Positions 21,174 through 60,600 of a stretch of 64,000 bases of DNA are shown here, piece after piece. The DNA comes from Candidatus Omnitrophota bacterium (GTDB taxonomy: Bacteria; Omnitrophota; Gorgyraeia; Duberdicusellales; 4484-171), in the NCBI GenBank assembly GCA_024231025.1, contig JAAEQW010000256.1, positions 66,954 to 130,953 on the forward strand, given 5' to 3'. The stretch's first letter is position 1, and each line of letters starts with the position of its first letter. The notes under the pieces were generated by a model. The model saw nothing but the letters and a program-made list of their open reading frames with translations, was not told the DNA's origin and did no database searches. Both the position numbers and the translations under genes were made by a program.

Positions 21174-21887
21174 TTGAATAGTAGAAAAAAAGGAGAAATT
21201 GTGTCTAGAAAAGAACCGTTGGTTGTAGGAAAAACTTATCACATTTTCAGTAAAAGCATTGCTAATTTTAAAGTATTTAATAGTTCTTTTGAATATGAGA
21301 GAATGGTTAAGATGATTCAATATTATCGACAAGAAAATCCTTCGCAAAGGTTTTCTCGTTTTATTGAACGTAGAGGGAGTGATAAAAAGACAGACGACCT
21401 GCGAACTCTTTCTTCGAATGAAAAAGCATTGGTAGAAATAATTTCATATTGCATAATGCCTACTCATTTTCATTTGGTATTGACCCAGATGAAAGATGGA
21501 GGTATATCAATTTTTGTGAATAATCTCCTAAACAGTTATACAAGATATTTCAATACCAAACTTAAAAGAAAAGGCCCTTTGTGGGAATCGAGGTTTAAGA
21601 GTGTTTTTGTTGGCACAGACGAGCAATTGCTTCACTTAACGCGCTATATACATCTTAACCCCGTTACCGCATATTTAGTTGATCAACCAGAAGATTGGGG
21701 ATTTTCTTCATATAACGAATATGTTGGCAACGCTCTTTCTGAAAATAAGATATGTGAATACGATAATGTTTTGGACATCACCCCTAGTTCCTATGGAGAT
21801 TTTGTAAAAGACAGAATCTCATACCAGAGGTCGTTAGGGTGGATAAAAAATGTGGCTCTTGAAGAAACCCAAATGTACACCGCGTAG
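21174..21887 (+). CDS. REP-associated tyrosine transposase (RAYT / IS200-like), family 2
   Basis: HUH motif MPTHFHLVL. The last codons (..MYTA*) are encoded by the REP2 palindrome. Confidence 0.8.
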   Translation: MNSRKKGEIVSRKEPLVVGKTYHIFSKSIANFKVFNSSFEYERMVKMIQYYRQENPSQRFSRFIERRGSDKKTDDLRTLSSNEKALVEIISYCIMPTHFHLVLTQMKDGGISIFVNNLLNSYTRYFNTKLKRKGPLWESRFKSVFVGTDEQLLHLTRYIHLNPVTAYLVDQPEDWGFSSYNEYVGNALSENKICEYDNVLDITPSSYGDFVKDRISYQRSLGWIKNVALEETQMYTA

Positions 21888-37223: not shown

Positions 37224-38645
37224 TTGATGCATCGACAAAAAGCGAAATTAAAAAATTTAATTTTAAAATCTTTTAAAAAGAATCCTTATTTTGGTGTACG
37301 TAAGATCGCCAAAGATTTAAAAGAGAAACACAATATCTTTGTTTCAAAAAGCTATGTTCACAAAATTCTAACCCAACAAGAGCCCGATGCGCAAACCGGC
37401 TGTAAAAAAAGTATTCTCGCCTATAAGAAAAAACACCTTGATGACTGCGGAGCGTTTTTGTTGCGGGCGATAGATTCGCACCTGGGATTATTCAACAATC
37501 TAACTAGCCTATTGCAGCCACATTTTCCTAAGTTGCAAGCGAAACTCCTTAAGAAAATTATTGTTTTCTTTTCACTTTCTTCATTTTTAGGATACGACCT
37601 AAACCAGGCATCAGAAGAAAAAAGCCTGCTTAGGGCCGCGGATTTATATGTTTATCCAGCTCGAAATATAAAATACTTCCTAGATCAGTTGAATGATTGC
37701 AAGCCGACGATCAGCCTTGACAATTTTGCTAAAAGCTTAGTTTCGGTGGCAAGCGTGAAATTTTCTTTTGTAAATGGCACAAAAAGCTATTGTGATGGGA
37801 GTTTTTCTTGTTTTTGGGGTAAACCTGCATTTATTGATGAATTTTTTGTTCCTTATAGTTTGGCACAAAAGAGAGTAAAGGCGATAATAAAGAATAAAAT
37901 CATCATGATCAACTATACTAAGAGTTTTGACTATCTTTCGTCGTTAACCACGAGTTTTATTGATGGTTTAGCAAGCGGAATAAAAACAATCGAACTTCTC
38001 GACAAAAAAGGTAATGTTTTGGAGGAATTTACTCCACCTCCGGTGAAAATGTCTTTTTTGATTGGATATTACCCCCAAATTCTCTCTAAAGGGGTGGTTT
38101 TTTTGCGTAAATCAGCCCGTTTTAAGAAATTTGACGCAATAGATGGCGATATCCACTATATTTCGGCCCTGGCTAGATTTTTACAACCAAAAGGGAGCAA
38201 AGGGCTTATATTAAATAGTGTACTTATTAACCGAAAACGTCAAAGTTTGCCTTCGTGGGGACTGCTTACCGATAAGCGGTCAAATTTCACTCTTTTTTTA
38301 AAAAGGTATCTTAATTCTTGGCCGTATATGGATAAGGTTTTTAAGGAGGAGATGGAGTTAGTTGAGAAGTTTTACACGCAAAGCAATAAAACAAAGGAGT
38401 TGGGCGATTTTGTGCCCGAGCACGTAGTTTTGAGTAAATTTGACGATTTCAAGGGAATTGGCGCTATTTTGGCGGCTGTTTTCAGGGATCGAGTGGCTCG
38501 GGTTGAATTGAGGGGCAAAAAGGGCCAAGTTGCCACCGGTAAAGATTATTTGCGAATTAAACTCTTAAGATTCTCTCCGGCATTTAAGAGGAAGTTCAAC
38601 AAATTCTCATTCTCAATTGATAAGCGCAATGTTTTCCTCATCTAG
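37224..38645 (+). CDS. Hypothetical protein with an N-terminal HTH-like region; candidate transposase-like cargo between two inverted-repeat elements
   Basis: A 473-aa ORF flanked by element copies B and C. Only the N-terminus (FGVRKIAKDLKEKHNIFVSKSYVHKIL) resembles transposase HTH modules. Confidence 0.45.
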   Translation: MMHRQKAKLKNLILKSFKKNPYFGVRKIAKDLKEKHNIFVSKSYVHKILTQQEPDAQTGCKKSILAYKKKHLDDCGAFLLRAIDSHLGLFNNLTSLLQPHFPKLQAKLLKKIIVFFSLSSFLGYDLNQASEEKSLLRAADLYVYPARNIKYFLDQLNDCKPTISLDNFAKSLVSVASVKFSFVNGTKSYCDGSFSCFWGKPAFIDEFFVPYSLAQKRVKAIIKNKIIMINYTKSFDYLSSLTTSFIDGLASGIKTIELLDKKGNVLEEFTPPPVKMSFLIGYYPQILSKGVVFLRKSARFKKFDAIDGDIHYISALARFLQPKGSKGLILNSVLINRKRQSLPSWGLLTDKRSNFTLFLKRYLNSWPYMDKVFKEEMELVEKFYTQSNKTKELGDFVPEHVVLSKFDDFKGIGAILAAVFRDRVARVELRGKKGQVATGKDYLRIKLLRFSPAFKRKFNKFSFSIDKRNVFLI

Positions 38646-39150: not shown

Positions 39151-39163
39151 ATAGAGGTAATTA

Positions 39164-39339
39164 TGTTAATAAGGCGCAAAAAATTGTGTGCACAAACAGT
39201 TCTTGAGTATATTCTCTTGACGGCGGCGGCAGTAATTGCCATTGCGGGGTTCGGAAAGTTTTTTAATATAATTGTAGGAGATTCCGGTGCATTAACCCGG
39301 CATTTTAATGTGATGAAGCAAAGTATAACCGGACAATAA
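39164..39339 (+). CDS. Small pilin-like protein with a class-III-like signal (58 aa; not in the ORF track)
   Basis: RBS AGAGGT; N-terminus MLIRRKKLCAQTVLEYILLTAAAVIAIAG. Confidence 0.55.
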
Positions 39340-39342
39340 AGT

Positions 39343-39498
39343 ATGAAGCGCAGAACAAAAACTCAAAGCATCGTTGAATACGTAATGCTGTTTATGATTG
39401 TGTCAGCAGCAATTATGATGACTTATAAATACCTGAACCGCTCGATGAACGCTCGCTTAAAACAGGTTCAGGAAGAATTAGAATACGAAGCATACTAA
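39343..39498 (+). CDS. Small pilin-like protein (51 aa; not in the ORF track)
   Basis: N-terminus MKRRTKTQSIVEYVMLFMIVSAAIMM. Confidence 0.5.
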   Translation: MKRRTKTQSIVEYVMLFMIVSAAIMMTYKYLNRSMNARLKQVQEELEYEAY

Positions 39499-39694
39499 TG
39501 ATTTTTTAACAGGGAGGTATTAAAATTCCAAATAACAAATCCCAAATCACAAACAAATCACAATGATTAAAATTCAAAACAGGAAAAGACACGTTTTTGG
39601 TCATTTGATATTGGAATTTGGTAATTGTTTGTGATTTGTTTTTTGGAGCTTGTATTTTTTGACAATATGATTTCTTAATGGGGGAGGTGAAGGG

Positions 39695-39931
39695 ATGTTG
39701 ATACGCAAAAAAGCGCAAGGAATTTTGGAGTATACCCTGCTTTTAGGGGCAATCATCGCGGTGGTCGTTACGGTAATGATGAAAAAGGATAGCGGTGTAG
39801 CCGCTAGGGTTAAAAAGACTTATGAAAAAGCAGGGACGGCGATTGATAAAACAAATAAAGACTTAAACGTTGGCGTTTTTGCACCACCGGCGAGTACTGT
39901 TCCCGGAGAAGTAACCGTGCGGCGGCGCTGA
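39695..39931 (+). CDS. Pilin-like protein with a class-III-like signal
   Basis: RBS GGAGGTGAAGGG; N-terminus MLIRKKAQGILEYTLLLGAIIAVVV. Confidence 0.75.
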   Translation: MLIRKKAQGILEYTLLLGAIIAVVVTVMMKKDSGVAARVKKTYEKAGTAIDKTNKDLNVGVFAPPASTVPGEVTVRRR

Positions 39932-39975
39932 TGATGATTAGTATATGGTAATTACGTTTTTAAGGAGGTGAAGCA

Positions 39976-40167
39976 ATGTTGATACGCAAAAAAGCACAGG
40001 GAATTTTGGAGTACACCCTGCTTTTAGGGGCAATCATCGCGGTGGTTGTTACGGTGATGATGAAAGAAGGGGGCGTAGCAAGTAAAGTTTCAGATACTTA
40101 CGAGAAAGCAGCGACGGCAATTGAGACGACAACCGATGATTTAACGTCGGGTGTTTTTGGGCCTTGA
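39976..40167 (+). CDS. Pilin-like protein, a paralogue identical to the previous one over its N-terminal 30 aa
   Basis: N-terminus MLIRKKAQGILEYTLLLGAIIAVVV. Confidence 0.75.
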   Translation: MLIRKKAQGILEYTLLLGAIIAVVVTVMMKEGGVASKVSDTYEKAATAIETTTDDLTSGVFGP

Positions 40168-40206
40168 TCGATATATAGTAACCATGTTTTTAAGGAGGTG
40201 AAAGAA

Positions 40207-40617
40207 ATGTTATTACGAAAAAAAGCACAATCAACCGCGGAATATGCAATTACCATTGGTTTAGTAGTTGCGGTTGCCGCAGGCATCATGCAAGTTGCCC
40301 TAAAGAATGGAATGCGTCAAAAGAGCAAGGAAGCTAATGATATTTTGCGCCGAGCAGGTACCGCTGCGATGGGGAGTATGGACGTTGACACGACTATTTT
40401 TGGTGGTGCGTCAACGGGTCTTAACCCTGATGCACAAGGGGCGTTTAACGTTTACAACGAAAGTGCGCGCTCAACAGTGGTTGACCAAGAAAGCTATCTT
40501 GATAAAACTATTCTTGAGAAGGGCGGAGCCGAAAAGAAACTTCAACACCGTGAAACGGTAACTACGTCGATGGATGTCGATAATTTTGAAAATGTAAATA
40601 AAGATACTACGCCATAG
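40207..40617 (+). CDS. Pilin-like protein with a longer C-terminal domain
   Basis: N-terminus MLLRKKAQSTAEYAITIGLVVAVAAG. ATG 40207 has the same RBS spacing as its paralogues; the ORF track begins at GTG 40198. Confidence 0.7.
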   Translation: MLLRKKAQSTAEYAITIGLVVAVAAGIMQVALKNGMRQKSKEANDILRRAGTAAMGSMDVDTTIFGGASTGLNPDAQGAFNVYNESARSTVVDQESYLDKTILEKGGAEKKLQHRETVTTSMDVDNFENVNKDTTP

Positions 40618-40654
40618 AAAATGAATAATGAAACCTAAAAAGGGGGGTGAAAAA

Positions 40655-41143
40655 ATGTTTTTACGCAAACAAAGAAAGTCGCAATCTATCTTAGAGTACG
40701 CTCTTTTATTGGGGGTAATTGTTGCCGCGATTTTGATTATGCAAACATTCGTTAAAAGAGGTTTTCAAGGGCGAATGAAGGATTCCGCCGATAGAATCGG
40801 CGGCGGTGAAACATTTTCAACTAGTGATACCGCAATTATTAGCACCAATACGATGACTTCTGACCAAGTTATTGTTGACGTTAAGGGCACCGCAGGTGCA
40901 GATGGTGCGATGCATGGTTTACTCACCGATGCGATTGGTGCAAAGCTTGCCGATCAAGCCGTAGTCGATATCGTAGGAAAGGGTGCGGCCGCTGCGAACG
41001 CACGTTTTGGTGGTGACATGACTTCCGAGACATTGCAGAAAACTTCTGATGCAACCAGTGAAGCTTATCGTCAAGCGGATTACACCGAGGCTGTAGTTGA
41101 AGATTTTGAGGATGACGACATTATTGACGCATTTGGTGACTAA
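40655..41143 (+). CDS. Pilin-like protein with a C-terminal domain
   Basis: N-terminus MFLRKQRKSQSILEYALLLGVIVAAIL; the likely start is the internal ATG 40655. Confidence 0.7.
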   Translation: MFLRKQRKSQSILEYALLLGVIVAAILIMQTFVKRGFQGRMKDSADRIGGGETFSTSDTAIISTNTMTSDQVIVDVKGTAGADGAMHGLLTDAIGAKLADQAVVDIVGKGAAAANARFGGDMTSETLQKTSDATSEAYRQADYTEAVVEDFEDDDIIDAFGD

Positions 41144-41222
41144 ATAGGCCATTGCTTGCGTATAGAGCTTTAGCGGTTTTTGAGTGTGCGCTATGCGCGC
41201 GTGAGCAAAAGGGTAAAGGATT

Positions 41223-41591
41223 ATGAAACTTAGAAAAGGACAGAGCATTTTGGAGTATGCCGTTTTACTTGCGGTGATTATTGCGGCACTGGCGGTTATG
41301 CAGACTTACATTAAGCGAGCCTATCAGGGTCGCCTAAAGCGTGAGGCGGATAATTTGGGCCAGCAATATTCTCCGGGGCACACAGTTACATTAAACGCAA
41401 CTGTGACCGAAAGTGATTCGGTAACCTATAGTGGTGGCAAAACCGACCCTGATGATTCTGATCTTATCGATGGAGAAGTGGAAGTTCCCGATGGGGTAAG
41501 CGTAACCTTTACCAAAACCAGCACGCGTACCGAACGCAGAGAAGGAATAGATTCTTACGCTACAGAGTTTGACGACGAAGATGACGATTAA
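41223..41591 (+). CDS. Pilin-like protein with an acidic C-terminus
   Basis: N-terminus MKLRKGQSILEYAVLLAVIIAALAV. Confidence 0.7.
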   Translation: MKLRKGQSILEYAVLLAVIIAALAVMQTYIKRAYQGRLKREADNLGQQYSPGHTVTLNATVTESDSVTYSGGKTDPDDSDLIDGEVEVPDGVSVTFTKTSTRTERREGIDSYATEFDDEDDD

Positions 41592-42170: not shown

Positions 42171-42966
42171 TAAATTTAAAAAAAGAGTTAGGGCGCAAGC
42201 TATAGCGGAGCTGGCAATTATGGGCAGTTTGATTATGGTTGCCTTCAGTATGATTTTATCTTATGGCCATCGCTTAGACAGAATACAAAACTTAAAAATG
42301 AAAACGTTCAGAGAGGCTCTGCGCAAAGCTTATTATAAAAACAGCACAGTAAACGTTACCAAGCGGGTCGATAGCCGTTCGGTGGATTTATTTAATTTTG
42401 GTAAGGGTCAGCCTTCAACCGCGCAGGCATCGGCGGCGGTAATGTGGCACAAAGGTATGCCGGGTGCGCAAGACACAAATGATGCTGCATTTAGCTTTTA
42501 TAGCATAAATGGTGTATATATTGGAGAGTACGGGTTCGCTGAGACTACTGGGCTTCCTAGGTACCACAAAACAGTTATTGGTGCAACTGGGGCAGAGTCT
42601 GAAATTCATAGTCCGGTGAGCGTTTATCGTGAAGAGTCAAAAAGGTATAGTTTTTATTCTGGAAATAAAGAGAAATCGGAAAGCGAGGATGGCATAGAAA
42701 ACGTTCGCTATGCTGATTTGCGTGACGATCTTGATATAAAAGTTAAAACTCGTTTTGATGCTGCCAAATACGATTCACGATTGGGTCCGGATGATCCCGA
42801 GCAGGAGTCACCTAAATATACACAGCATAGAAAATATGATTTAAAACAAACCGCGGTCTTTGATCCTTTGCTTGATGATGATACAATAACTTACAAAGAT
42901 GTAGAGGATGTCGATAGTGATTATCATGGTATTCATGTTGAAAGAACTCGGCATACGCCAAATTAA
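42163..42966 (+). CDS. TadE-like pseudopilin
   Basis: N-terminus MNSKFKKRVRAQAIAELAIMGSLIMVAF resembles the TadE/TadF N-terminal motif. The start overlaps the previous stop (ATGAATAG). Confidence 0.5.
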   Translation: MNSKFKKRVRAQAIAELAIMGSLIMVAFSMILSYGHRLDRIQNLKMKTFREALRKAYYKNSTVNVTKRVDSRSVDLFNFGKGQPSTAQASAAVMWHKGMPGAQDTNDAAFSFYSINGVYIGEYGFAETTGLPRYHKTVIGATGAESEIHSPVSVYREESKRYSFYSGNKEKSESEDGIENVRYADLRDDLDIKVKTRFDAAKYDSRLGPDDPEQESPKYTQHRKYDLKQTAVFDPLLDDDTITYKDVEDVDSDYHGIHVERTRHTPN

Positions 42967-43199
42967 TGGCAACAAAAATTTTATAAAAATTGGATTGTAA
43001 TTTGTAGTTTGTATATTATAATTTGTTTGTAATTTGTAATTTGTAGTTTGTAAGTTTTAAGTCCGGAAAATTCCGTAAAACGGGAAATCCTTAATTCTTA
43101 TCACTTACGACTTACGACTTATAACTTTACTCACGGGAGGTAAATATCAGTAAAAGAAGGCACAGTAAAAAAGGTTTCAAGAGGTGGGGTCAATCCATT

Positions 43200-44825
43200 T
43201 TGGGTTTTGTTTTTGCCTTTATCGCTTTAATGCTTCTTGTAATCGGCCTTACTCGCATTTGGATATGGTTTAACGCTAATTATGCCGGTCGTGCGGTTGG
43301 TTATCAAAATAGTCGGCTTGTTGCCGGAGGTGGAGAGTTAAGATCGGAAGGTGTTGGCAGTAATGCGAAGTTAGCAGAAGCCTATATGAAGGAAAGTATT
43401 CATGGCGAGCAGGGTTACTACGGCACAGAAGGTTACCTGAAAGACTTCAATCGATTTTTTTTAACTAAGGACTGGGTATTTAGGGGGGTTTCTAGCGGTA
43501 CAATTGATGACGGTCTAAGTGGTGGAATCACCGAAGCTGAGATTAATGATTGTTGTGAGGGTTGTTGTTCGGCTACCTCCTATGATAATGATATCTGCTC
43601 TTGTAAGGATCCCGGTGATTGCGGTGTTGGCGATGATTATGATAGTAATTGCGTTTGCCATGCTCATTGTGCCTGTGATGCTTCGGTTGCGGCCCAAATT
43701 TGGCTCTTAGAGAATCAAGCAGGGCTTTTAATTGAACAGGGAAACTCCCTAGAGGATAATGCAAGGTCATTAAGAAAGGCGGCTGGTGAGTGTGATGACC
43801 CCTGGGAGTTGTGTTTTTGGGGTGATTGGGGCAAAACTCCTCGCGAGCTAAGAAGTGCAGCCGCTGAATTAGACGATATGGCCTTAGAATTGTTTCTTGA
43901 GGCTGGCGCTTGGAAGACTACGTTTCATGAGGGTGATAATCCGGCGCATAATGATCAAGGCTACTATACTTTTTCTGATTATCTAGATCATAGAGCTACA
44001 GTAGATGAAAGTATAATAGGCAAAGGCGGAATCACTGATAGGATGCGCGAATGTTGCAAAATAGATGACGCTCCGTCACAAAAAGAATGCATTAATGCTG
44101 CTCGAACCGAAGCAGGAGATAGCTGTGATAGTTTAGTTTACAACTATGAGCTTGAACTAGTTGGCGAGCAAAGAAAATATCTTGAAAAATTGAGTGATGC
44201 AAGAGAGATCCTTGAGGATTTAGAGCCGGCAGTAACTGAGTGTGGCGTGAGTGCTGCTAATGGGTGTAGATCTGCATGCATGGGCAAGTGTACCACTTTT
44301 TGCCGTGATGCTGAAGGTGTTCCCTATGAATGTGTAGATGACGCCTGTTATCGAAATTGCCTCGGTCCGGTTGATGAGTGCACCCACGGTGCTAATTGCT
44401 ATGAGACGTGTTACCCTATTAGAAAAGAGCAATGTTGCCGTGACTATTGCGGTCCGAATTGTAGCGACGGTAATGGGTGGGGAAGAAATTGCGATAGTGC
44501 AGCTCCAATTGAAGCAAGTAGGCAGCATGAAAATGGCTTTATCGGCGGTTTAATTGGTGATACTGATCCCTCTGATAGTGCTGAGGAAATTATTGGAGCT
44601 TTTATTCCCGCGGCAAAGGATCATCTTGAAACAATCATTAGCGCGAAAGAGGCAATAGCGACCTGTTGCGCACAAGAGGCAGAAGATGCGGAAGAGGCAC
44701 AAGAGTTTGAAATCAATGAATTTAGTGAACAAGTAGAGTGTATAAGTGAAAAATTAGGCAACGCGTTGCTTTCTCCGGAGACATTAAAAAAAGGAGAGTA
44801 TGACGAATTCATGGGTGAGGAGTAA
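43200..44825 (+). CDS. Cys-rich (>40 Cys) large protein with a pilin-like N-terminal TM segment; candidate pilus-associated adhesin or minor pilin
   Basis: The frame is open upstream to 43146 and encodes ..KKGFKRWGQSILGFVFAFIALMLLV after a GGAGG RBS (43136-43140), but there is no ATG; the candidate starts are ATC 43146 or TTG 43200. Cys clusters include CCEGCCSATSYDNDICSCKDPGDCG. Confidence 0.6.
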   Translation: MGFVFAFIALMLLVIGLTRIWIWFNANYAGRAVGYQNSRLVAGGGELRSEGVGSNAKLAEAYMKESIHGEQGYYGTEGYLKDFNRFFLTKDWVFRGVSSGTIDDGLSGGITEAEINDCCEGCCSATSYDNDICSCKDPGDCGVGDDYDSNCVCHAHCACDASVAAQIWLLENQAGLLIEQGNSLEDNARSLRKAAGECDDPWELCFWGDWGKTPRELRSAAAELDDMALELFLEAGAWKTTFHEGDNPAHNDQGYYTFSDYLDHRATVDESIIGKGGITDRMRECCKIDDAPSQKECINAARTEAGDSCDSLVYNYELELVGEQRKYLEKLSDAREILEDLEPAVTECGVSAANGCRSACMGKCTTFCRDAEGVPYECVDDACYRNCLGPVDECTHGANCYETCYPIRKEQCCRDYCGPNCSDGNGWGRNCDSAAPIEASRQHENGFIGGLIGDTDPSDSAEEIIGAFIPAAKDHLETIISAKEAIATCCAQEAEDAEEAQEFEINEFSEQVECISEKLGNALLSPETLKKGEYDEFMGEE

Positions 44826-44840
44826 TGAGGTGACTTTATT

Positions 44841-46259
44841 ATGATGGTATTTTTTTCAAAAAACAAAGCTAATTATCGCAAGGGTCAGATTTTTCCCTTT
44901 TTACTTGCCCTGGTTGTTGTGATTATGATTATGTTAATGATTACAGTTAATTTGGGTCGTATTGGTGTGTTTAAAACCGATGTGTCAAATGCTGCTGATG
45001 CCGGTGCATTGGCCGGTGCAAGTGTATTAAGTGCGACTTTGCTTGAAATGGGTCTTAAGAATGACAGTATTTTTGGTTATGCGTTAACAATGTTTGGCTG
45101 TATTATTGTTGCGATAATTGCTTTTATGTATGTTGCAGCAATTGCTTGTGCGATTTCGCTTTTAATAACAATGTGGTCGGAATACTTTATAGTCAAAGGG
45201 GCCGGTGTTGTTGGTTGGGGAAACGCTAAAAAAACAGCGATCCAATATGCTTTTCAGAATGCCGGTATTGATGAACCGCGGCCCAGCTTTAAGCATTTTT
45301 TAGTTAAGGGCTGCGGGTTCTCTGAAGCCGAAGTCACCGAACTTCCACCGAATACAATTTCTGATCGTTACGATGAATATATGAACCAAAAATCTCGTCG
45401 TTCCCGTGACCACGGACGCAGTGGTTTTGGTAGATTTTTGGCAGACGATGAAAATGGTTTTTGGCGCCACACTATTGCTCCGGGTGATCGTCCGCCTCAC
45501 AAAGTGCACGCTGAATACGCTTGGAATAAAGATGGCACCAATTGCTGGGATGACGGTATTTGTAATAACCAGCCATTTGATAGTTGCCCCACTAGAGATC
45601 GTACTGCTGACTCAAGTGATAATTCAATATCACCTGAGTCAGCCTCAGATTGCATGGATAATTACGACTACAGCGTTAAGGTTGAAGTTAGCGGTGTAAA
45701 AATGTATGGAATTAAAATGTGGAGTTTTTTGGAGGGTGCCGAGCTGGTTACTTGTATGATCAACTATGTTTTAGGTAAGATAAACTGGCCGAGTTGGCTG
45801 GAGTGGCTGGGTAGTATTTTAAAGTTTATTATGTCGATATTTGGTTGGTTTCTTAATAAACTAGTTGCTACAATTTCTCCTTCAGGTTTTCGGCTAATGG
45901 GCGGTGATATAGTACAAACTGCCAAAAGTCCCTTAACAGTAACGGTTATAAAAAGAACAAGAGGTGGGAATGTTGGCTTCTGGAATTTTGTCTATGGTAA
46001 TAGCGATAATGAAGTTAGGGCAAGATCATCCGCGGTTGCCGGCTGGAATGAAAATCCTAATAATCCCGGTTTTGATTTTGAAGGGTGCGGTTGTCGAAGC
46101 ATTATTCCCACAGGAGGGTATACAAATTGTAAGGGGGGGGACTTAAAAGTTACCGGATTGTGTAATATACTCGTTGGTCTTCTTAAGGGTGATGCCGATT
46201 GGCAATATATGAATACAAAATATCATTTATTTGAAACTCGTTTAACTGCGGCGCAATAA
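44841..46259 (+). CDS. TadG-like pilus-associated protein
   Basis: N-terminus RKGQIFPFLLALVVVIMIML...SNAADAGALAGASVLS resembles the Tad_N/TadG N-terminal module. Confidence 0.5.
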   Translation: MMVFFSKNKANYRKGQIFPFLLALVVVIMIMLMITVNLGRIGVFKTDVSNAADAGALAGASVLSATLLEMGLKNDSIFGYALTMFGCIIVAIIAFMYVAAIACAISLLITMWSEYFIVKGAGVVGWGNAKKTAIQYAFQNAGIDEPRPSFKHFLVKGCGFSEAEVTELPPNTISDRYDEYMNQKSRRSRDHGRSGFGRFLADDENGFWRHTIAPGDRPPHKVHAEYAWNKDGTNCWDDGICNNQPFDSCPTRDRTADSSDNSISPESASDCMDNYDYSVKVEVSGVKMYGIKMWSFLEGAELVTCMINYVLGKINWPSWLEWLGSILKFIMSIFGWFLNKLVATISPSGFRLMGGDIVQTAKSPLTVTVIKRTRGGNVGFWNFVYGNSDNEVRARSSAVAGWNENPNNPGFDFEGCGCRSIIPTGGYTNCKGGDLKVTGLCNILVGLLKGDADWQYMNTKYHLFETRLTAAQ

Positions 46260-47111: not shown

Positions 47112-47306
47112 ATGTTGCCAAGAAAGAAAAAATTATCACAAGCTGTAATTGGCTATGCTATTTTATTCTGCCTTATAGTATCAGCTTTGCTTATTGTTGG
47201 CCGCTACGTGAGAAATGCTTTTTCCGGTAGAGTCCGCCAAGCCGGTGATTCATTCGGCAGCGGCGAAGTATACGCCCCCTACGGTCCCGATGCCAGTAGG
47301 GATTAG
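47112..47306 (+). CDS. Small pilin-like protein
   Basis: N-terminus MLPRKKKLSQAVIGYAILFCLIVSALLIV. Confidence 0.55.
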   Translation: MLPRKKKLSQAVIGYAILFCLIVSALLIVGRYVRNAFSGRVRQAGDSFGSGEVYAPYGPDASRD

Positions 47307-48690: not shown

Positions 48691-49559
48691 TTTTTGTTGT
48701 AATTTTTGTTTTAATATTGGCGGCTACTTATATGATTATGAGCGGGATTAGCTCTTTTACATATGAGAAGAAGGAGCGTTTTTATGCTCACCTTCCTTCT
48801 AAATCCAAGACGAATATATTTACTACCGGTATTTTTAGAAACATTTCAACGTTGATTAATCGACCGTTTGCCGAGGTGCCTTATTTAAGGAGCATTAATG
48901 CAAAAGCCAAGTTCTTAAAACTTCCTTTTGGGTCGTTAGAGATATTGCTAATGAAAGAGCTTCTAATGGTAGGTGGGGGAGTTGCCGGGTTTATACTTTT
49001 TGAGCCGATGCACGGGGTTATTGGTGCTTTTGTTGGTTTTTTATTGCCTGATTTTGTGGTTAATAGTAAGGTTAATGGCAAAAAGGATGCTCTCTTGCGT
49101 GTATTTCCCGAAACGGTAGACATTATGGATTTGTGTATCGGTGCGGGGTTAGATTTTTTAGCGGCTTTGCGTTGGGTGGTTGAAAAATCAACACCGAGTC
49201 CTTTTATCGAACAGCTCGAGGTAGTTTTGAGCGAAATACAAGTTGGCAAAAGCCGAAGCGAGGCGCTGCGTGATATGGCTAAACGGGTTAAGCTTCCTGA
49301 TATAAATAGTTTTGTGCGAACGATAGTTCAGGCGGAGCGAATGGGTATTTCTATTGAAGAAGCCTTACGTAATTTGTCTGAAGATACACGGATGACCCGC
49401 TTTCAAAGAGGAGAGAGATATGCGATTAAAGCTGGTTTAAAAATGTTGATTCCTCTAATGTTATTTATTCTGCCTGTAATTTTGGTTGTAGTAGCCGGTC
49501 CGGTTATTATTCAATTCACCCAGGGCGATCTTATTCCCGGTTCAGGGGTAATGCAGTGA
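48687..49559 (+). CDS. tadC: Tad pilus inner-membrane platform protein TadC-like (T2SS F domain)
   Basis: Overlapping start; T2SSF domain. Confidence 0.7.
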   Translation: MIFVVIFVLILAATYMIMSGISSFTYEKKERFYAHLPSKSKTNIFTTGIFRNISTLINRPFAEVPYLRSINAKAKFLKLPFGSLEILLMKELLMVGGGVAGFILFEPMHGVIGAFVGFLLPDFVVNSKVNGKKDALLRVFPETVDIMDLCIGAGLDFLAALRWVVEKSTPSPFIEQLEVVLSEIQVGKSRSEALRDMAKRVKLPDINSFVRTIVQAERMGISIEEALRNLSEDTRMTRFQRGERYAIKAGLKMLIPLMLFILPVILVVVAGPVIIQFTQGDLIPGSGVMQ

Positions 49560-50080
49560 GAAAAAAAATAGTTTCGATCAGCGTAATTATTATAGCTTGC
49601 GTTGCGCTTAGCGGTTGTCATTTTTTGTGGATTAAATATAAGAATAAAGATAAAAAGTTCTCTATTTTGTTTTCTAGATTTTGGACAATCGAAGAAAACA
49701 AAGGACCGTTAGATGTTGTTTGTCACGCTCCTTTAAAAGGAAAAAATGATCTCTATCGTGAAAATATAAATGTAATTGCAGCAGAGCTGCCGAATCAGGA
49801 TGCGGTAGACACTTTTTTTCAGATGAATAAAGATGTTACAATGCGTGTTTTACCGGGGCTAAAGAGCAATGTGTCTGAAGGTGAGATATTTGCCGGCTCT
49901 CACCGCGGCCAATACTTTTCTTTTGAGACCAGCATGGAGGACCATAAAATAAAAATTAAAAGCGCAGTCTTTTTTAAGGGGCTTAAAGCTTATATCGTTA
50001 CCTGCAGTGCGCAGACTAGCCAGTACCATAAGTATAAAGATGTTTTTGAGAAATCCATCAAAAGCTTGCGGATTAAATAG
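49556..50080 (+). CDS. Lipoprotein, function unknown
   Basis: Lipobox VALSGC. Confidence 0.5.
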   Translation: MRKKIVSISVIIIACVALSGCHFLWIKYKNKDKKFSILFSRFWTIEENKGPLDVVCHAPLKGKNDLYRENINVIAAELPNQDAVDTFFQMNKDVTMRVLPGLKSNVSEGEIFAGSHRGQYFSFETSMEDHKIKIKSAVFFKGLKAYIVTCSAQTSQYHKYKDVFEKSIKSLRIK

Positions 50081-51397: not shown

Positions 51398-52363
51398 TCA
51401 TGCATCGTAAACAACAAAGAGAAGATTGATTGCGATTAGGTTAAAGATAAAAAGAAACATCGCAGTGCATGGCGAGACTAGGCCAATTAGGGCTGCTTCA
51501 AAGCAGGCAGTTGCGATAATCGCCCACTTTAAAATATGATAAGCATTATCGCGTGGATTAATGATTAAGCTTATTGCGGTATATACAAAAATCAATGCTG
51601 ATAGAGTTATTAGCCCATAAAATATATCTTGGGAATAAGGTGCCAAAAACAAGGACTCCTTCAAGAGAAAAAATCTCACTAAAGTAAAAAGTATTGCCAC
51701 AAAAGGTAGGCTAAGATACTTGGCTCGATTCGGAGTAAGTAGAATAACTAAGTTGCGTATGCCCGCTGCTTTGTCTCCTTCGGCATCTTTGAAATTAGAG
51801 AAAAAGCAAAAGATAAAGTTTACAAACCAAACTAAAATTGCTGCCGCAGCGAGATCTTGCCTCCAAATGATCGCAAACCCGCTTGAACCGGCGCATAATG
51901 CCCCATAATAGACGCATAGAGCGATCAAAAGACCGTAGACGGCGTTTCCTAGGATTATCTTTTTAAATCGACTATAAGCGAAATTCATGGCAAATATAAG
52001 TACATAAACTACTACCGCGTACCCATTCAGAAAATAAGTAGCGATCGCCCCAATGATAAATAAAATGGCGCTTATTGCAATGGCATGTTTCACTTGTAAT
52101 GTTCCGGTAACCATTGCCCGACTTGGAGCATTTATGCGATCTTCAGTGAGACTTAAATAGTCGTTAACAACTTGGTTAACTCCCCAACCAGCAAACATAA
52201 TGATTAAAATCGCCATTTGCCGCAACAGATTTGGCTCAGGAACAATTAAATACATGCCCAAAAGCCCGGCCATTGCCGGAATGAAGCCGCAATACCAACG
52301 CATAGAAATAAAGTAGGCAGCAATGTTTTTCTTCATTTTAGAAGTAATTAAGCCAGAAAGCAA
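51398..52363 (-). CDS. UbiA-family prenyltransferase
   Basis: Eight or nine TM helices and the Asp-rich NDYLSLTEDRINAPSR motif. Confidence 0.55.
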   Translation of the reverse strand: MLSGLITSKMKKNIAAYFISMRWYCGFIPAMAGLLGMYLIVPEPNLLRQMAILIIMFAGWGVNQVVNDYLSLTEDRINAPSRAMVTGTLQVKHAIAISAILFIIGAIATYFLNGYAVVVYVLIFAMNFAYSRFKKIILGNAVYGLLIALCVYYGALCAGSSGFAIIWRQDLAAAAILVWFVNFIFCFFSNFKDAEGDKAAGIRNLVILLTPNRAKYLSLPFVAILFTLVRFFLLKESLFLAPYSQDIFYGLITLSALIFVYTAISLIINPRDNAYHILKWAIIATACFEAALIGLVSPCTAMFLFIFNLIAINLLFVVYDA

Positions 52364-53795
52364 GTACCGATAAAGTTACGGCGTGCAGGAAAAAGGCGTA
52401 TTTGTCTTTGTAATTGACAGAACTAACTAAATAGCATTGCAGTACTGCCAAAATCACCATAGGAAAAAATAGCAACGGATCCAATAATAACAGCGGCAAA
52501 ATCAAATAGGATATAAGAATAACAATGCCTATGAGTAATTTGCTTTTCTTCTTGCCGAACAGATTAAGAATCGACCATTTTTCCTTAGACTCCAGATCCA
52601 TAAAATTTAAGCATAGCGCGGGAAATATTAAAAAATAAAGCGAAAAAATATGGGGAAAACCGCGCAGCTCTCCACCGGCAAATAACCAACCAAGCAGCAC
52701 CAAAAGCAATAGGCCGGCCGATATTAAGAATTTAGAAAAAACCGGAACACGTTTTAATTGCAGTGGTGGCAATGAGTGCAAAGTGATCAGCGAGAGAGCG
52801 ATCAAGGCAAAGTAAAAGGTAGTGAAATTAACCGCTAAAGCACAGATCGCGGTGACTAAAAAAACAGCACCGATTACGCTTTTTGTGTTTTTGTGGTATG
52901 GGCGATTAAGCGTTATCGCCACAGAGTAGGTGCCGATGATTGCAAATATCGTTAATATAAAGGATGAAAAGTTTCTAATTAAGGTAGTGGTTATCAGATA
53001 TTGCCTTAAGGTGACGCCCAAAATGAAACAAAGAACAAGGCATATTGCTTTAGAGGGGTAAATGTTTTTAAAAATATTCTTATCCTTTAAATAAAGCAGA
53101 ATGAACACTTCTGCAAAAATAATTACGCAGAAAAAGCGAATTACTGGTATCGGTCGAGTAGTCAGTAAGCTTACCTTTAGTAACGCGGCAATTTTACCCA
53201 TAATTGTTGGTAGAATAAAGAAGATTAAAATTACAGCGTATGAACATAAAACTCCTAAAAGGGCGGTAGTAATTTTCTTTGTTTTAATTAGGCAGTAGCT
53301 GAAAATAACCGTAAGAAATAGTATGCCAGTTAGGAATTCACCCGGAGTTACTCCATGCGGTGGCAAAAACGCTGCCAACCCTGTGGGCGTAATGTAGTGA
53401 ATTTCAATTCCTTTGCCCGCGGATAAGATTAAATCAACAATCGGAGTTAACACGACAATTGGAGTTACCCCCAGCACGATCCGCAATGTCTTGTCGATTT
53501 TTCGGCGAGTAAGCAATGTTAAGATTATGGGAAATGCAAAAGCTACCGCGACCCACCAAAGACAATTATGGGTAAACCATATTGCAATGCTGGTGCCGGC
53601 AGAAAGAAAAGATTCGTGATTAAACGGAAATAGCTTAAAAGGAACCCAACCGGTATCTGAGAAAATTTCCAGAAAGTTTTCAATAGTTATGACGCCAAAG
53701 AATGTTAGAAAATAGTATATTGCAGGGATGCTTGTATCTTCGATTACCGAGACAAAATTTTTGATTTTTTGTGCGAGATTACCCATCAATACCAA
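52338..53795 (-). CDS. Polytopic integral membrane protein, function unknown
   Basis: At least 12 predicted TM helices; its 3' end overlaps the start of the UbiA gene. Confidence 0.5.
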   Translation of the reverse strand: MVLMGNLAQKIKNFVSVIEDTSIPAIYYFLTFFGVITIENFLEIFSDTGWVPFKLFPFNHESFLSAGTSIAIWFTHNCLWWVAVAFAFPIILTLLTRRKIDKTLRIVLGVTPIVVLTPIVDLILSAGKGIEIHYITPTGLAAFLPPHGVTPGEFLTGILFLTVIFSYCLIKTKKITTALLGVLCSYAVILIFFILPTIMGKIAALLKVSLLTTRPIPVIRFFCVIIFAEVFILLYLKDKNIFKNIYPSKAICLVLCFILGVTLRQYLITTTLIRNFSSFILTIFAIIGTYSVAITLNRPYHKNTKSVIGAVFLVTAICALAVNFTTFYFALIALSLITLHSLPPLQLKRVPVFSKFLISAGLLLLVLLGWLFAGGELRGFPHIFSLYFLIFPALCLNFMDLESKEKWSILNLFGKKKSKLLIGIVILISYLILPLLLLDPLLFFPMVILAVLQCYLVSSVNYKDKYAFFLHAVTLSVLAFWLNYF

Positions 53796-54652: not shown

Positions 54653-57600
54653 ATGAAACAAAAAAGTAATAAAATGGGGAGTGGGGATAGGGGGAGGTTT
54701 TTAAACTTTTCTCTTAGCTCGTTTAAAGGTAAGAAAATAGTGAGTGCGATAGTCGCACTCATTTTTTTATTTAACGTCTGTACCCCTGCGTATGCTTGGC
54801 GTGACGGTAATCATAGCCATACAACTAGCGCTGCAGCTTTTGGTGGCGGAGCGCTCGGCGGACTCGTAACCGGTGTTTTTATTTTGATCGGTAATGGTGG
54901 CCTAACCAGTTGGGGATCGGTAGTTGCCGGTGCTGCGTCTGATATAACCGGAGCGATCATGTACTACGAAAGTTATGACACCTACGATGAGACGATGACC
55001 ATTGGCGGGGAAGAGCTTGATTGGAGTCTTGGCAAAGTTGACATAACGATTACTAAAGGTCAGTTTTGGAGTATGACTGCCGGAATAATTGCTGGCTGTA
55101 TAGTTGGTGTTGTCGGCGGTGTTGCTTCAGGAGTGAAAACCGCAGCCGCTGAAGCAGCTAAAGAAGGCGTGAAAGAAATATCGAGTGAGGCGATCAAAGA
55201 AGTCACAAAAACCGCAACTGACATTGCAGTAGAGACAATGAAGAATGTAGTTGTCGGATCGATGATTGGTGCCGTGGCCGGTGCCGCCGGAGGCGCGATA
55301 GTTGGGGCAATTAGCGATGGTAAGGAAGGCGCCCTTAAAGGCTTGGGAAAAGGTGCTGTTCTTGGTGCCGCGGCGGGGGCAGGCGGTGCGTTACTAACTG
55401 GTGTTTTGAGAGGTATTGAAAAGGTGCTTGCTTCAACGATGGGCGATTCTCTTGCCGGTACGATTGCTGAGAACGTTATTAATCATACTTTGCGCAACGC
55501 TTTAATTAAGCTTCCGGTTGACTTTGCTTGTGCTTTTGGAGCGCTAGTAGTTTCTCGTACCGTTGAAGAAGTGCTAGTTCAAAAACACGACATGGATCGA
55601 ACCCTTGCCGGGATGATTGGTGGCGTTGCCGGAATGGGGGCGCGTTTTCTTACCCAGCCGGTATTAATGCAAACGTGGACCCAGAACAATTATTACATGA
55701 GCAACCGAGGCATTGTGCTTAGCGCAGGTGAGAAAAAGCGACTGGACATGGTTGCGAATTTTAAAAAGACCCTCAAGAAATCCAAGGATAAAATCGAAGT
55801 TGGTCAAATTGACGCCAAAACCGGAGAAGTAACCCAAAGTAAGACCATTAGCGTCTCTCGTCTTGCTGATGCAAAATATATAGGTAGTGGAGTGTTTCAA
55901 TTGGAAAATGGAAGTCAAGTTGACATTAATTCTAACGGCATGAGGGGGTTATCTCCTGAAATAATGAAAGCGGTGAAGGGTTATGCCAACATAGTTGCGA
56001 GGGTGGATCCTTCAATGAGAATAACCGGCGACGTTGCGCGCACCTTTGGCGGAGGCGCGGTGCAGGATTCGTTTTTTGCTCCGATTCATTCGGTGGTGAG
56101 CGTTGGGCCGCGACCGATTATTTCAACAGCAACACAAGTTGCGATATTATATGCTTTGGATTATAAGACGTTTTACGGCCGGGGTGATTCAGAACGCGGC
56201 AAAAAGAAAAATTATCGCAATGCGCTTAAGATGGCGCTTGCGCGCAGCGCAGGTTCGCTTGCTGGTGAGCTGTCGACAGGTTGGTTAACGCAAGCTTATA
56301 ATCCTTGGAGTTCAAGGCCGCAAGATATGGCGGGTTTTAAAGGTTGGGCGCAACATACCGGCAGGGCGGTTGCGGTGGAAAGCGGCGGACTGCTAGCTGA
56401 CGTTGCTTTTGCTCGGATGACTTACGCTTGGAATTTAAATACTGCCTATGGCCTTCAAGGCCTGGTGCATTTGGGAATGAGTAGTCTTGTTGGTGGAACA
56501 TTGGATACCTTATTTAGAGAAGATCGAATGAAAGCCGAGAAAACAGTTTTCGTTGAGGTTAAAGATGAGCCCGAATACGTTGATGAAAAAAAACTTGTTA
56601 AGAAAGAGCCCGAAACGCTCAGCGAAGAAGAACACCGAGAAAGATATAGTGCCGCAAGAGGTTGGGAGCCCGATGAAAACGCGACTAAGCCATCAAAGGG
56701 TATCTACGTTTATACAAACACTAAAACCGATGAAACAAAAACTTATAAAAAGCAGCACAGCGTGGTGGATGTTCCTAAAGGCTATGAATCGGCCTATTCG
56801 AAGGCAAGCGTTGGCGCGCCACGAGTGGATATTTTCTTTATTTGTGTAGGAATGGATTTTGCTAATAACTTCAAAGAAGCATCAATTAACGCGGCACTGA
56901 TGCCTTATCCGTATCGTTCAACCGGCACTGGAATGGGGGCAATGGCCGCAAATTTTGAAAATCAAGATCGGTTTACTCGTCGCATAGCAATGCATATGCG
57001 CGGGGTTGGCCCAGTTCAAGCAAGGGCAATCGAGGCGGGCCAGGCTCTAAGCGGCCAGGCACGGGGACGTTTTGCTAATAGTTTCGGTTATTCAATTGCT
57101 AATACATGGCTTCCGTATCGGTACCAATCTTACGCGGCATTTATGCCGGACGTTGACGCGCACTTAGATGAAAACGTTTCTACGCCGGGTAGAGAATCTG
57201 AAAAGCTCTATAAGGATCGTAAGGAAACGAAAGAACAGCGCCAAAAAGTAAGACAAGAAACTCAGGAAGTAGAGAAAAAAATAGCAACAATTGAACTCTC
57301 CAACTTAGATAAAAAAAGTGATGATACTTTAGTTGCGTTACAAAAACGTTTAATTGAGCTAAAGGTACAAGATAAAGCATTGGGGAATAAACTTGCCCAA
57401 AATAAAAAAGATATTCAAAATCTCCGTACCAAAACGGTCAATGCGTACGGTGATTTGTCGCCAATATATTTTAATGGCGGGATCGTGAATTATTCAGTTG
57501 ACCGGCGTATCTCTGATTATGCGGTGGTAAGAGAATCAATTCAGTTTACCGGCGAAAGATCCGCTGAAGAAAAAGAAAACGCAATGATTCACAACGAAGA

Positions 57601-60600
57601 TCCTTCGCAATATAGATCAATTGAGGTAGAGGCAAAAGCAACGCTAGAGAGGGCGGGTGATGATGAGGAAATTGAAATATCTTCTTTTCAAGGAACGTAT
57701 AATCCTTCATTGGCCGGCCGACCGTTGGCAGTTGAGCACTACAGCACACAATTATCACATGGCGTTAGTGTTAATAACTTAGCCGGTGCTCTTGAAGGCG
57801 CTGAGCATCCGTTGATTGTGGGTGATGGCCTTACCATAACTAAGCCCGATCAACTTGATGAGGCTAAAAACAGGCTTTATGATATTATGGCAGACGATCC
57901 GGACGCGCCGATATATTATAAGGAGTTAAAAGCAGAGAAAGACTTAAACGATCAGGTAGTCGAGAAGCGGGCACAAGAGCAAGTTAAAGGTGCGAAAGCT
58001 TCAACTGAGAAAGTTAAGCCGATAATCCTGGTTACCGACAAGAAAAAGCGAGCCATCGCCGAAGAGATGACGGGTATTGTTGAGCGGCTTAATGGCGCGG
58101 TAAAGGGTGACGAAAACGCGAAACGTAATTTCGGTTCGGGTTTAATTGGCGTAATGGCCCTAAGAAGACAGGGTAATTCTTATTATCGGGCAACATGGGT
58201 TTTGGGTGAGGGCGATGAAAAGAAAGCAAAAGTTGCCAGAGTAATCGATGATTTAGGGGTTAGCCGTGGCGGTGGTATAAAATTGCAACATTCAGATAAG
58301 CCGTCTTTAACTGCCCGCACCACACGCGATATTTACGGCAGAAGTATTGAAACAAAAGAATACGGTTGGCATTATGATGTGAAAGAAGAAGAGATTGGGG
58401 TAAGTGATCCTCAAAGTAAAAGAAAGCCGGGTACAACAACACCTGAGAAGAAAAAAGTATCGGGTAACGGCGGGTATCGCCTTGTATCCCGTGATTTAGA
58501 AGGTGATGATAAGGTGTTAAAAGTCACTAAGCACGTTTATAAGGATTCGAAAGAAGCAAGAGAGGCTGCGATTGAGCTCAGTAAAAAGATGCCTAATTGG
58601 CATATTCAAATATACGAGAACGACGAAATTGCCGAAATCGAAGACGACAAGTTTCTTTTGGTTGAGGATTCCCCGGAACATTCTTTGATTGCGGCCATTT
58701 CGCCAGAAGCCGCGGCGGCAGGCCTAATCCCTTCTAAAATTCCTGATGATTATAAAATAAGAGCAGCTTATCCAAGAACCGAGACCACCGGAACCTGGAA
58801 AAACGTTGAAGTAGCAACCACCGAATACTATTATGGGCCGATGGGCCAGGCGATGTCAATAAGAAGCGAGGATCCAATAAAGTCACAACGCCGCAAAAAA
58901 GATTATAGTGCGGCGAATATAGTTGACGTTAGGCAATTAACTTTGCGTAAGCACGAGGATGAGACCGGGGCAATTAGAAAAGTAGAGCTCATCGAGAATG
59001 TTGATGGTGAGGAAAAAGTATTAAGTGAATTTAGAGGGAAAGAGGGAGAAAATCCTTTTGATGAAGCAGTAGCGTATGCGGCTACGCTCCAAAGCCCTGA
59101 TCCTACGATGGAGACAGTAGATTATGATTCGACAGGCGATCAACATTATATTGTGATGCGTGATCCAAAGACACAAAAGATAACTGGATTTGCCACGAAA
59201 GATTCTTATGCTAAGCATAAGGACGCATACGCTAAAGCCAATGAGCTTATTGATGGGCTTCTCCAAGGAGGTGGCGATGAAGCTTTACCTAAGGATACGA
59301 TTTTTGAAATATACATGGCTCATGAAATAGGTAAAACCAAAGACGGTCAACTGGTTATTTTAGATGATGAAGCAAGCGATGCCGCTTTGGCAGAAGCGCC
59401 AGTTGGAAAATATGCTTTGAAACCAAGCAGCCTTACCGGCAGAAAAGCGCCTAGTCAGGGGCCGGATGATCACAGCCCCGACGCGGTTGATTTTGGCAAG
59501 GCAACAGTTCAAGCGGCATCTGTTGCTAAAGGTGATGACCCGAACGTTACCTATGCGATAAGCATTTACGACACAAAAAGTGATCTTGAGTTTGTTAAGT
59601 CGTTAGGTGATGGCGGCTGGACGCGTTCGCCGTATGTTGGCGGTCCTAGCGGGCGATTAATTGCCCAAGACATACACCATGGTCCGCAGCTCTTATCAAA
59701 AAACGTACCGTATAATCCTAACATGCCCAGCAACCTTTTAAAAGTTGTGCGGATACATCTTGAAAATAGATTTCTCCAAGAAGCCGGCTTAAAAGAATTG
59801 GCAGTTGATGACATAGACGTTGACACAGAAGAAATTGTTGATGAGATGTATGATCGATTTGTTAAGAAAGCGCCGAAGTTTAAAGATCGGGTACTTGATG
59901 TGCGAGGCGCCAAAGGCAATAAGGAAGAGGCTTATAGCAAAGTAATGAGCAATTCGAATTACAATTTAGGCAAAATAGCTAACGAAACGTATAATGAAGT
60001 AGTTAATGAGCGCTTTAAAAGGGCGGGCCTAAACGATCAGGCTTGGAATACAATGATGCAAAGGCCAATAACAAGAATGGAGAGTTTTCAGTTTTTTGAA
60101 AATAAAAATATTGCCGGCAAAACATATTCGCTTCCAACCTGGGGCGCTAAGGCGGGGTATAATGCCGCTCGTCGTCCCAATAGGGATGTGGTTTATGATG
60201 CCCTAAGGCCGAATACAATGTTAAGCGCAACCGAAGATTATGTGCTACAATATGACGCAGGCGATCGGGTGATTGACATAACTGTTGTAGCCGGTGAAAC
60301 CATTGAAGATGCCTTAGCTAGAGAGGATATTTTTGTGTCACGCAAAGAGTATACCGCAAGCAAAGATGGGCGCAAATTTGCCGTTAATAAAGATAAAACT
60401 TTCAATGAGGCTGAGTATGAGGAAACCGGATTTTTATCGAAGCCTAAAGAGCGTAACATTGTGCTTGGCGGCGACAAAGCGATAAGGGTTGGACCGTCTC
60501 AGAGCCCACAAGAAGCCTTGAAAGAGCACGAGATAATCGGCACAACTTTTATTAGTGAAGAGGATTTTGTAAATAGAGTTGTTGCGCCTAATGAGGAGAT

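Follow-up and report, generated by a model that had tools for sequence, protein, structure and literature searches.

TadE and TadF, the pseudopilins of Tad (Flp, type IVc) pili that are encoded by tadE/tadF in Aggregatibacter and by cpaJ/cpaK in Caulobacter, are roughly 150-200 aa long, and the classical gene order is tadE-tadF-tadG. In the Kil Tad pilus of Myxococcus, TadE/F/G-like minor pilins build tip complexes for which many disulfides are predicted, are needed for the pilus to form and show low transcription; the tip model is genetically established, and an exposed variable domain tunes the prey range (PMC12075869). For Omnitrophota, a link between the Tad loci and life as a predator or parasite has been drawn (PMC10066038). 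Here, we describe a cysteine-rich, pilin-like protein that is encoded inside the Tad locus of an Omnitrophota metagenome-assembled genome (MAG), on a 64,000-nucleotide (nt) stretch of Candidatus Omnitrophota bacterium DNA (GCA_024231025.1, contig JAAEQW010000256.1, positions 66,954 to 130,953 of the forward strand), hereafter the window. The NCBI annotation lists this protein as GY858_06100 of a Candidatus Omnitrophica bacterium MAG, with 541 aa and a TTG start at 43200. The annotated form lacks its leader peptide, and we propose that the complete protein is probably a Tad minor pilin with a conserved accessory domain.

The sequence ahead of the annotated start reads ISKRRHSKKGFKRWG/QSILGFVFAFIAL (the slash marks the predicted cleavage site), which matches KGQSILEYA and KSQSILEYA, the N-terminal sequences encoded by the pilin genes at 41223 and 40655. 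It has the layout of a class III signal peptide: a basic leader with eight K, R or H residues, a small residue at position -1 and about 20 hydrophobic residues. A word-indexed search found 15 homologues with 25-36% identity, none of which carries a Pfam domain, and 1.84 billion cluster representatives searched with a profile gave 332 sequences at E <= 1e-3, including 77 at 1e-30 or better. All 86 homologues with a placeable N-terminus begin with Met and a leader, whose length is 4-40 residues with a median of about 8, followed by the family motif Q-S-I-L-(D/E/G)-F..AFIA…G(I/L)xRIWxWFNANYA. Position -1 is held by Ala (32), Ser (29), Gly (23) or Thr (2), position +1 by Gln (79) or Glu (7), and position +5 mostly by Asp (54), Gly (17) or Glu (11). 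Apart from one fragment, the window protein in its annotated form is the only sequence that begins inside the hydrophobic helix. A preliminary description of this DNA had recognized the K/R-rich, QSIL-containing and hydrophobic N-terminus as pilin-like, and the family bears this out as no chance resemblance. Since the leader and the QSIL motif are present in 86 of 86 homologues, the 18 codons 5' of the TTG are coding and the annotated start, which would drop the leader together with three residues at the beginning of the conserved motif, is wrong. Judged from these alignments, the 541-aa protein is N-terminally truncated, with a real N-terminus that includes the leader. The TTG start itself is a gene-calling artefact, since the caller accepts ATG, GTG and TTG alone.

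The reading frame follows an in-frame TAA (43122-43124) and is open from 43125 to the stop codon at 44823-44825. The frame had been described as open for 54 nt ahead of the TTG; this is the distance to the ATC codon at 43146, the open stretch itself being 75 nt. Codons ATG, GTG and TTG are all absent in frame between 43125 and 43199, in agreement with the preliminary description, and the ATC at 43146 is the only in-frame ATN or NTG codon between the stop at 43122 and Gln+1. The ribosome-binding site that had been noticed five nucleotides ahead of it is also borne out: the 5-nt spacer TAAAT separates GGAGG at 43136-43140 from the ATC. Clear genes of the window (e.g. 12548, 16048, 16879, 23088, 23957, 41664) usually have GGAGG or GAGG 4-6 nt 5' of their start. 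No canonical start exists in any frame from the Shine-Dalgarno sequence to 43184, and therefore an insertion or deletion would rescue none, which rules out a frameshift as the cause of the missing start codon. GAGGTG occurs at 43182-43187, 12 nt 5' of the TTG, and a minor secondary start at TTG 43200 is possible.

The family shares a core of about 100 residues, which comprises the basic leader, (A/S/G)/QSIL(D/E/G)F, the hydrophobic helix, RIWIWFNANYA..YQ.SR and PLDLTEDWVF. The C-terminal module behind this core is variable. In some species the corresponding middle gene of the locus is short, with roughly 80-310 aa and 0-6 Cys, while in others it exceeds 1000 aa and carries about 39-109 Cys. 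The existence of short, Cys-poor forms identifies the Cys-rich part as an accessory module. Among the individual homologues, L008, L014, L015 and L016 (match at about 3000) consist of the pseudopilin core and a short tail, with 78-261 aa past the cleavage site and few or no Cys; in P0080 and P0099 the length rises to 959-1233 aa and the Cys count to 102-109. The family is conserved in the adhesion-pilus locus of Omnitrophota and is without prior annotation.

The genomic setting agrees between the window and related contigs. From the rotamase to TadC, three fully annotated homologue contigs keep almost the order of genes seen in the window, and some extend to a UbiA-family gene of the opposite strand. 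In 14 of 17 homologue loci, a TadG-like gene with the motif KTDxSNAADA lies directly 3' of the target homologue, and in 13 a pseudopilin of ~270 aa (GQAxVELA / QAxxELA) lies directly 5' of it; the loci that lack the full order of this trio are mostly contig ends. The gene is thus found in a tad locus next to a tadG-like and other pseudopilin genes, the setting that marks TadE and TadF, and by position it occupies the place of tadF in the classical order.

Behind its N-terminal core, the window protein differs in composition from all its neighbours. It contains 36 cysteines (6.4%) against 2.6% or less in every other gene of the window, and five other pilin-like genes that were tabulated contain none. 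More than 40 cysteines in CxC/CC clusters had been reported at first; this number does not hold, and the dominant spacing is CX3C (10), compared with five CC and three CxC. The mature protein is acidic (isoelectric point 4.3). An AlphaFold2 model built with a 57-sequence alignment has a mean predicted local distance difference test score (pLDDT) of 75, with core blocks at 85-95, and a predicted template modelling score (pTM) of 0.50. It predicts an N-terminal helix at 12-61 (50 residues, pLDDT about 68-90), a poorly predicted linker and long helical hairpins (170-215 with 232-256; 327-381; 479-507) that are joined by short beta-hairpins. Strands 223-225 and 228-230, between helices 170-215 and 232-256, fall on the family signature CDDPWELCFWGDWG.

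Searches for relatives of this domain were negative. The target has no match in Pfam (E <= 0.1), NCBIfam or PHROGs, and TadE is absent from the families matched by 16 aligned members at E <= 1. PF13400 is matched by the neighbour at 44841-46259 only, not by the target. The Pfam scan of the 16 members gave weak matches of coiled-coil type (WXG100, DUF6381, Prefoldin), which we refuse as evidence of homology. WXG100 (PF06013) was weakly matched by six of the 16, with a best E of 4.5e-04 below the gathering score and no match for the window protein itself; we read these matches as a coiled-coil or hairpin resemblance around the W-G-D-W-G turn. Foldseek found no match in the PDB (best E = 0.95), and a sequence search of the PDB with the family profile returned non-significant helical-bundle, Cox17 and HA2 matches only. 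In the literature, we found no paper on a cysteine-rich Tad minor pilin or on this Omnitrophota family. The protein is pseudopilin-like, yet without demonstrable membership in the TadE or TadG families of Pfam: it belongs to a known system, the Tad minor pilins, with an undescribed conserved accessory domain whose fold has no known relative.

Table 1. Features of the cysteine-rich gene and of the surrounding Tad locus, with positions in the window; slashes mark predicted cleavage sites.
Feature	Position	Strand	Remark
Full coding sequence, Cys-rich pseudopilin, re-interpreted	43146..44825	+	559 codons and stop; open frame, conserved leader
Shine-Dalgarno GGGAGGT	43135..43141	+	Spacing to ATC as in clear window genes
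ATC, proposed near-cognate start codon	43146..43148	+	Homologues have ATG or GTG there
Predicted basic leader peptide, 15 residues, ISKRRHSKKGFKRWG	43146..43190	+	Gly at -1; family leaders 4-40 aa
Hydrophobic N-terminal helix of mature protein, QSILGFVFAFIALMLLVIGLT, then conserved RIWIWFNANYA	43191..43253	+	Alignments; AlphaFold helix 12-61
TTG, annotated start	43200..43202	+	Position +4 of mature pilin-like sequence
Cys-rich, acidic, mostly helical ectodomain, Cys136 to Cys532	43551..44741	+	36 Cys
Signature motif CDDPWELCFWGDWG	43791..43832	+	Short beta-hairpin turn between two long helices; conserved across family
Long AT-rich spacer 5' of target	42967..43134	+	Heptad array 42995-43062; promoter-like site 42995-43022
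PpiC-type rotamase	31437		Locus gene
RcpC/CpaB	32361		Locus gene
Secretin	33335		Locus gene
TadZ-TadA fusion ATPase	34915		Locus gene
Helix-turn-helix (HTH) or transposase-like open reading frame (ORF), 473 aa	37224-38645		Between TadZ-TadA and flp genes; weak HTH_21 and transposase-HTH matches N-terminally
About eight small or mid-size proteins with Flp-type N-termini	39163-41591		(K/R)x(A/S/G)/Q(S/G)I(L/V)EY
Three larger pilin-like genes	41664, 42166, target		
Upstream partner pseudopilin, about 266 aa	42166..42966	+	MNSKFKKRVRA/QAIAELAI...
Downstream partner, TadG-like protein	44841..46259	+	Pfam Tad PF13400, E = 1.8e-07, above gathering score; KTDVSNAADA motif
Lipoprotein	46262		Locus gene
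Small pilin	47112-47306		Locus gene
TadB	47848		Locus gene
TadC	48687		Locus gene
PsbP-like lipoprotein	49556-50080		After TadC
Pair of UbiA-family membrane proteins	51398-53795	-	Opposite strand

The locus carries an unusually large repertoire of Flp-type pilins, with about nine genes of 51 to 162 aa (39163-41591 and 47112-47306), two of which are near-identical tandem copies (39695 and 39976). At their predicted cleavage sites, position -1 carries Ala, Ser or Thr just as frequently as Gly, a looser pattern than in the classical Flp site G/XXXXEY. In homologue locus L002, a 306-aa protein (5802-6722) with a similar N-terminus stands at the same place as the ORF at 37224-38645 and is absent from L001; this ORF may therefore be a regulator of the locus rather than a transposase. 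The PsbP-like gene and/or a 505-aa UbiA gene adjoins the Tad locus in homologue contigs, too. The region is flanked by giant ORFs (474-7727 and 54653-60961; 2417 and 2102 aa) with almost no cysteine, and such ORFs are a noted feature of Omnitrophota (PMC10066038). Two IS200/Y1-type transposase genes (7972-8691 and 21174-21887) show that the genome carries mobile elements.

Directly upstream of the target, the spacer at 42967-43145 measures ~180 nt, compared with 16-18 nt in the homologue loci. It contains an imperfect, AT-rich heptad array (TTGTAAT/TTGTAGT) that occurs nowhere else in the window, a promoter-like site (TTGTAA-16-TATAAT) and 2.7 copies of ACTTACG at 43103-43121. Rfam matched no RNA family in 42900-43260. 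The spacer could be an inserted internal promoter or the remnant of a rearrangement.

Taken together, our data indicate that the gene probably encodes a Tad/Flp minor pilin (pseudopilin) of Omnitrophota with an accessory disulfide-stapled domain, translated weakly from an AUC codon behind a strong Shine-Dalgarno sequence. The minor pilin role is the firmer part of this proposal, as far as sequence and gene order can tell; a role as tip adhesin is plausible by analogy with Kil. In the course of events that we infer, initiation at AUC with initiator Met would be weak and yield a low-abundance prepilin, which would enter the inner membrane with its N-terminus inside. A TadV/CpaA-type peptidase encoded elsewhere would then cut after Gly15, and the ectodomain would be oxidized in the periplasm, possibly with the aid of the conserved rotamase that heads the locus. 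Together with the neighbouring pseudopilins, including the 266-aa one, and with the TadG-like protein, the mature protein could form a priming or tip complex, which the Flp filament would push through the secretin so that the Cys-rich domain becomes exposed to a host or prey cell. Some tip-located minor pseudopilins lack Glu5, and the Gly at +5 of the window protein would suit a subunit at the very tip; we place little weight on this argument, because Asp or Glu is found at +5 in most of the family.

Several observations weigh against this reading. No A24/TadV-type prepilin peptidase is present among the about 30 window ORFs that were scanned, nor in the annotated parts of the homologue loci, and the peptidase for the at least 12 class III signal peptides must be encoded elsewhere. 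The target has no Pfam TadE (PF07811) or Tad match even at E <= 1, and hhalign comparisons of its family with the two flanking pseudopilin families were not significant, the probability against the TadG-like alignment being 2.8%. The predicted ectodomain is helical and without the alpha-beta head of classical type IV pilins. Position +5 is Gly instead of the pilin-typical Glu/Asp, as it is in 17 of the 86 family members. The ATC is confined to this genome, so that a base error or a start-loss mutation is possible, and AUC is a poor start codon in E. coli, where initiation reaches ~1-2% of that at AUG (0.02-3% depending on the construct) and N-terminal Met was found (bioRxiv 10.1101/063800). 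With respect to yield, both the demand for minor pilins and their transcription are low (PMC12075869), which makes a weak start tolerable; that the weak AUC start is adaptive would be speculation.

Two of these points, the missing pilin-type head and the Gly at +5, would also fit a protein outside the pilus, for example a bitopic inner-membrane/periplasmic factor of Tad assembly or anchoring, or one whose cysteines bind metal (Zn, Fe-S, Cu). An extra CPxC pair near residues 91-99, which is present in 12 and absent from 19 of 31 full-length homologues, and a weak, non-significant match to the copper chaperone Cox17 (E = 0.028) point the same way, and disulfide formation is less certain in Omnitrophota because many of them are anaerobes. 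Against this stand the conserved prepilin-type site, with a small -1 residue and Asp/Glu at +5 in 65 of 86 homologues, and the fixed place of the gene between two other pseudopilin-type genes. The preliminary description had left the choice between a disulfide-rich and a metal-binding protein open. Cysteine counts are even in 24 of the 31 homologues (binomial p = 0.0017), and the variable Cys columns are gained and lost in pairs (phi 0.84-1.0), a pairing that is partly confounded by shared insertions and phylogeny and is thus supportive, not decisive. Parity and paired gain and loss favour disulfides over metal clusters, as does the extracytoplasmic location of the domain, while metal binding found no support. 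Moreover, helices with CX3C repeats are a typical feature of disulfide-stapled hairpins, as in twin-CX3C and CX9C proteins. The ectodomain is likely disulfide-rich, a module of ~430 residues with probably around 18 disulfides, and we regard a non-pilus or metal-binding function as rather unlikely.

For the minor pilin proposed here, the nature of its start codon has to be weighed separately. In the homologue loci that are readable at the DNA level, the start upstream of Gln+1 is canonical in 15 of 15 (14 ATG, 1 GTG), the window being the sole exception. The initiation context is otherwise alike, with gaGGTAAAT-ATC in the window and caGGTAAAAT-ATG (GGTAAAAT-ATG) in homologue L001. The non-AUG start is therefore peculiar to this genome and no family trait: of the two options that had been raised at the outset, non-AUG initiation or an uncorrected base, a family-wide non-AUG start can be dropped, and the ATC, which appears to occupy the place of an ancestral ATG, is either a lineage-specific change from ATG or an error. 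If the C at 43148 were a minority variant, or an error made in sequencing or assembly, ATG would be the true codon of the organism and the gene an ordinary member of the family. The canonical starts of the homologues speak for such an error, as do the single substitution that would give ATG behind an intact, L001-like Shine-Dalgarno sequence and spacer, and the origin of the sequence from a MAG. On the other hand, substitution errors in the consensus of short-read assemblies are rare per base, and the gene shows no other damage over its 559 intact codons, in which every family-invariant residue is kept. This intact frame, together with the strong and correctly spaced Shine-Dalgarno sequence, favours a genuine ATC from which some protein is made. 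A second assembly of the same population did not turn up: the 90% protein cluster contains one sequence from one contig, and two exact-pattern scans of metagenome contigs of the Joint Genome Institute gave 0 matches. On balance, we favour a genuine ATC over a base error, which we consider rather improbable.

Less probable still, with only a slight chance in our view, is a real ATC that acts as a start-loss mutation, so that the gene is silent (an incipient pseudogene) or is translated from TTG 43200 only into a leaderless protein that bypasses the prepilin peptidase: the GAGGTG ahead of the TTG and the unusual repeat-rich insertion just 5' of the gene in this genome fit such a loss, and the insertion and the transposase-like ORF within the locus together suggest a rearranged locus copy, but the conserved residues are all kept in an intact ORF, the strong Shine-Dalgarno sequence fits the ATC while the 12-nt spacing to the TTG exceeds the 4-6 nt that are usual in this window, and the TTG product would lack any positive charge N-terminal to the membrane helix, an arrangement that no homologue has. 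Recurrent non-canonical starts as a feature of the pilin cassette are ruled out, because an ATG lies upstream of each apparently truncated start in L001, L002 and L003.

These latter starts concern homologues of the window pilin at 41223, which are annotated from inside the hydrophobic helix in L001 (8510), L002 (8491) and L003 (415), with GTG, TTG or an internal ATG as start, and which have an ATG and a proper leader just upstream, e.g. MLMFTKKG/QSIVEY. Gene callers restricted to ATG, GTG and TTG have thus cut the signal peptide of the cysteine-rich protein and, in related loci, that of a neighbouring pilin despite an available ATG. It looks like class III signal peptides are truncated systematically by gene callers, which hides pilin-like proteins from surveys that are based on signal peptides. 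The start anomaly itself is an event of a single genome, and its main consequence is the mis-annotated N-terminus.

Tad pili are leading candidates for host or prey attachment by the uncultured, ultra-small Omnitrophota (PMC10066038), and recent work on Myxococcus shows that the minor-pilin tips decide recognition by a predatory Tad pilus (PMC12075869). With its variable, Cys-rich and structurally novel exposed domain, the protein described here is an obvious candidate for a specificity determinant, and it provides a concrete object for expression, antibody labelling and structure work. A bolder and more doubtful extension of the minor pilin proposal, which we offer as a tentative idea, is that ultra-small, host-dependent Omnitrophota possess an unrecognized class of Tad tips. 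These would combine a pseudopilin stem with an exchangeable, disulfide-knotted helical module of new fold (from 0 to about 1000 residues, with as many as 109 Cys) that sets the host or prey surface, and the AUC codon behind its strong Shine-Dalgarno sequence and the gene's own repeat-containing promoter region might keep the dosage deliberately low.

Compared with described systems, the predicted ectodomain resembles the twin-CX3C/CX9C hairpins of small Tim proteins and Cox17/CHCH proteins in its repeated CX3C on predicted helices and in its helix-turn-helix hairpins, and differs from them in compartment, size and context; given the non-significant Cox17 match, this is a resemblance only. The start codon recalls infC and pcnB (AUU) of E. 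coli, since an AUH codon follows a good Shine-Dalgarno sequence and low, IF3-sensitive initiation is to be expected. Unlike the AUU of infC, which is conserved and regulatory, the ATC is found in one genome only, and a non-AUG codon conserved among orthologues, as in infC, is not found here.

With TadE/TadF, the protein shares the position beside a TadG-like gene in a tad locus, the short basic leader, the small -1 residue and the hydrophobic helix, and its family consensus has an acidic +5 followed by Phe/Tyr, as in the Flp-type site G/XXXXE(Y/F). It differs from these pseudopilins in the lack of a Pfam TadE or Tad match, in its far larger size of 559 aa, in a -1 residue that is Ala or Ser as often as Gly across the family, in its own Gly at +5, and in the ~430-aa Cys-rich helical domain without known relative. 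The KilL/KilM/KilN proteins of Myxococcus xanthus have a beta-stranded head where the ectodomain of the window protein is predicted to be helical, and carry the variable domain on the TadG homologue KilN, while here it is found on the middle gene; sequence homology between the two is not established. In both cases, nevertheless, the Tad pilus belongs to a predator or a probable predator or parasite, and several minor pilins and small Flp-like adapter pilins are encoded in one locus. Many intramolecular disulfides are predicted for both sets of proteins, and in both an exposed C-terminal domain that varies sits on a helical base that is conserved. Low expression of the minor pilins, a feature of Kil, is proposed here for the Omnitrophota protein as well.

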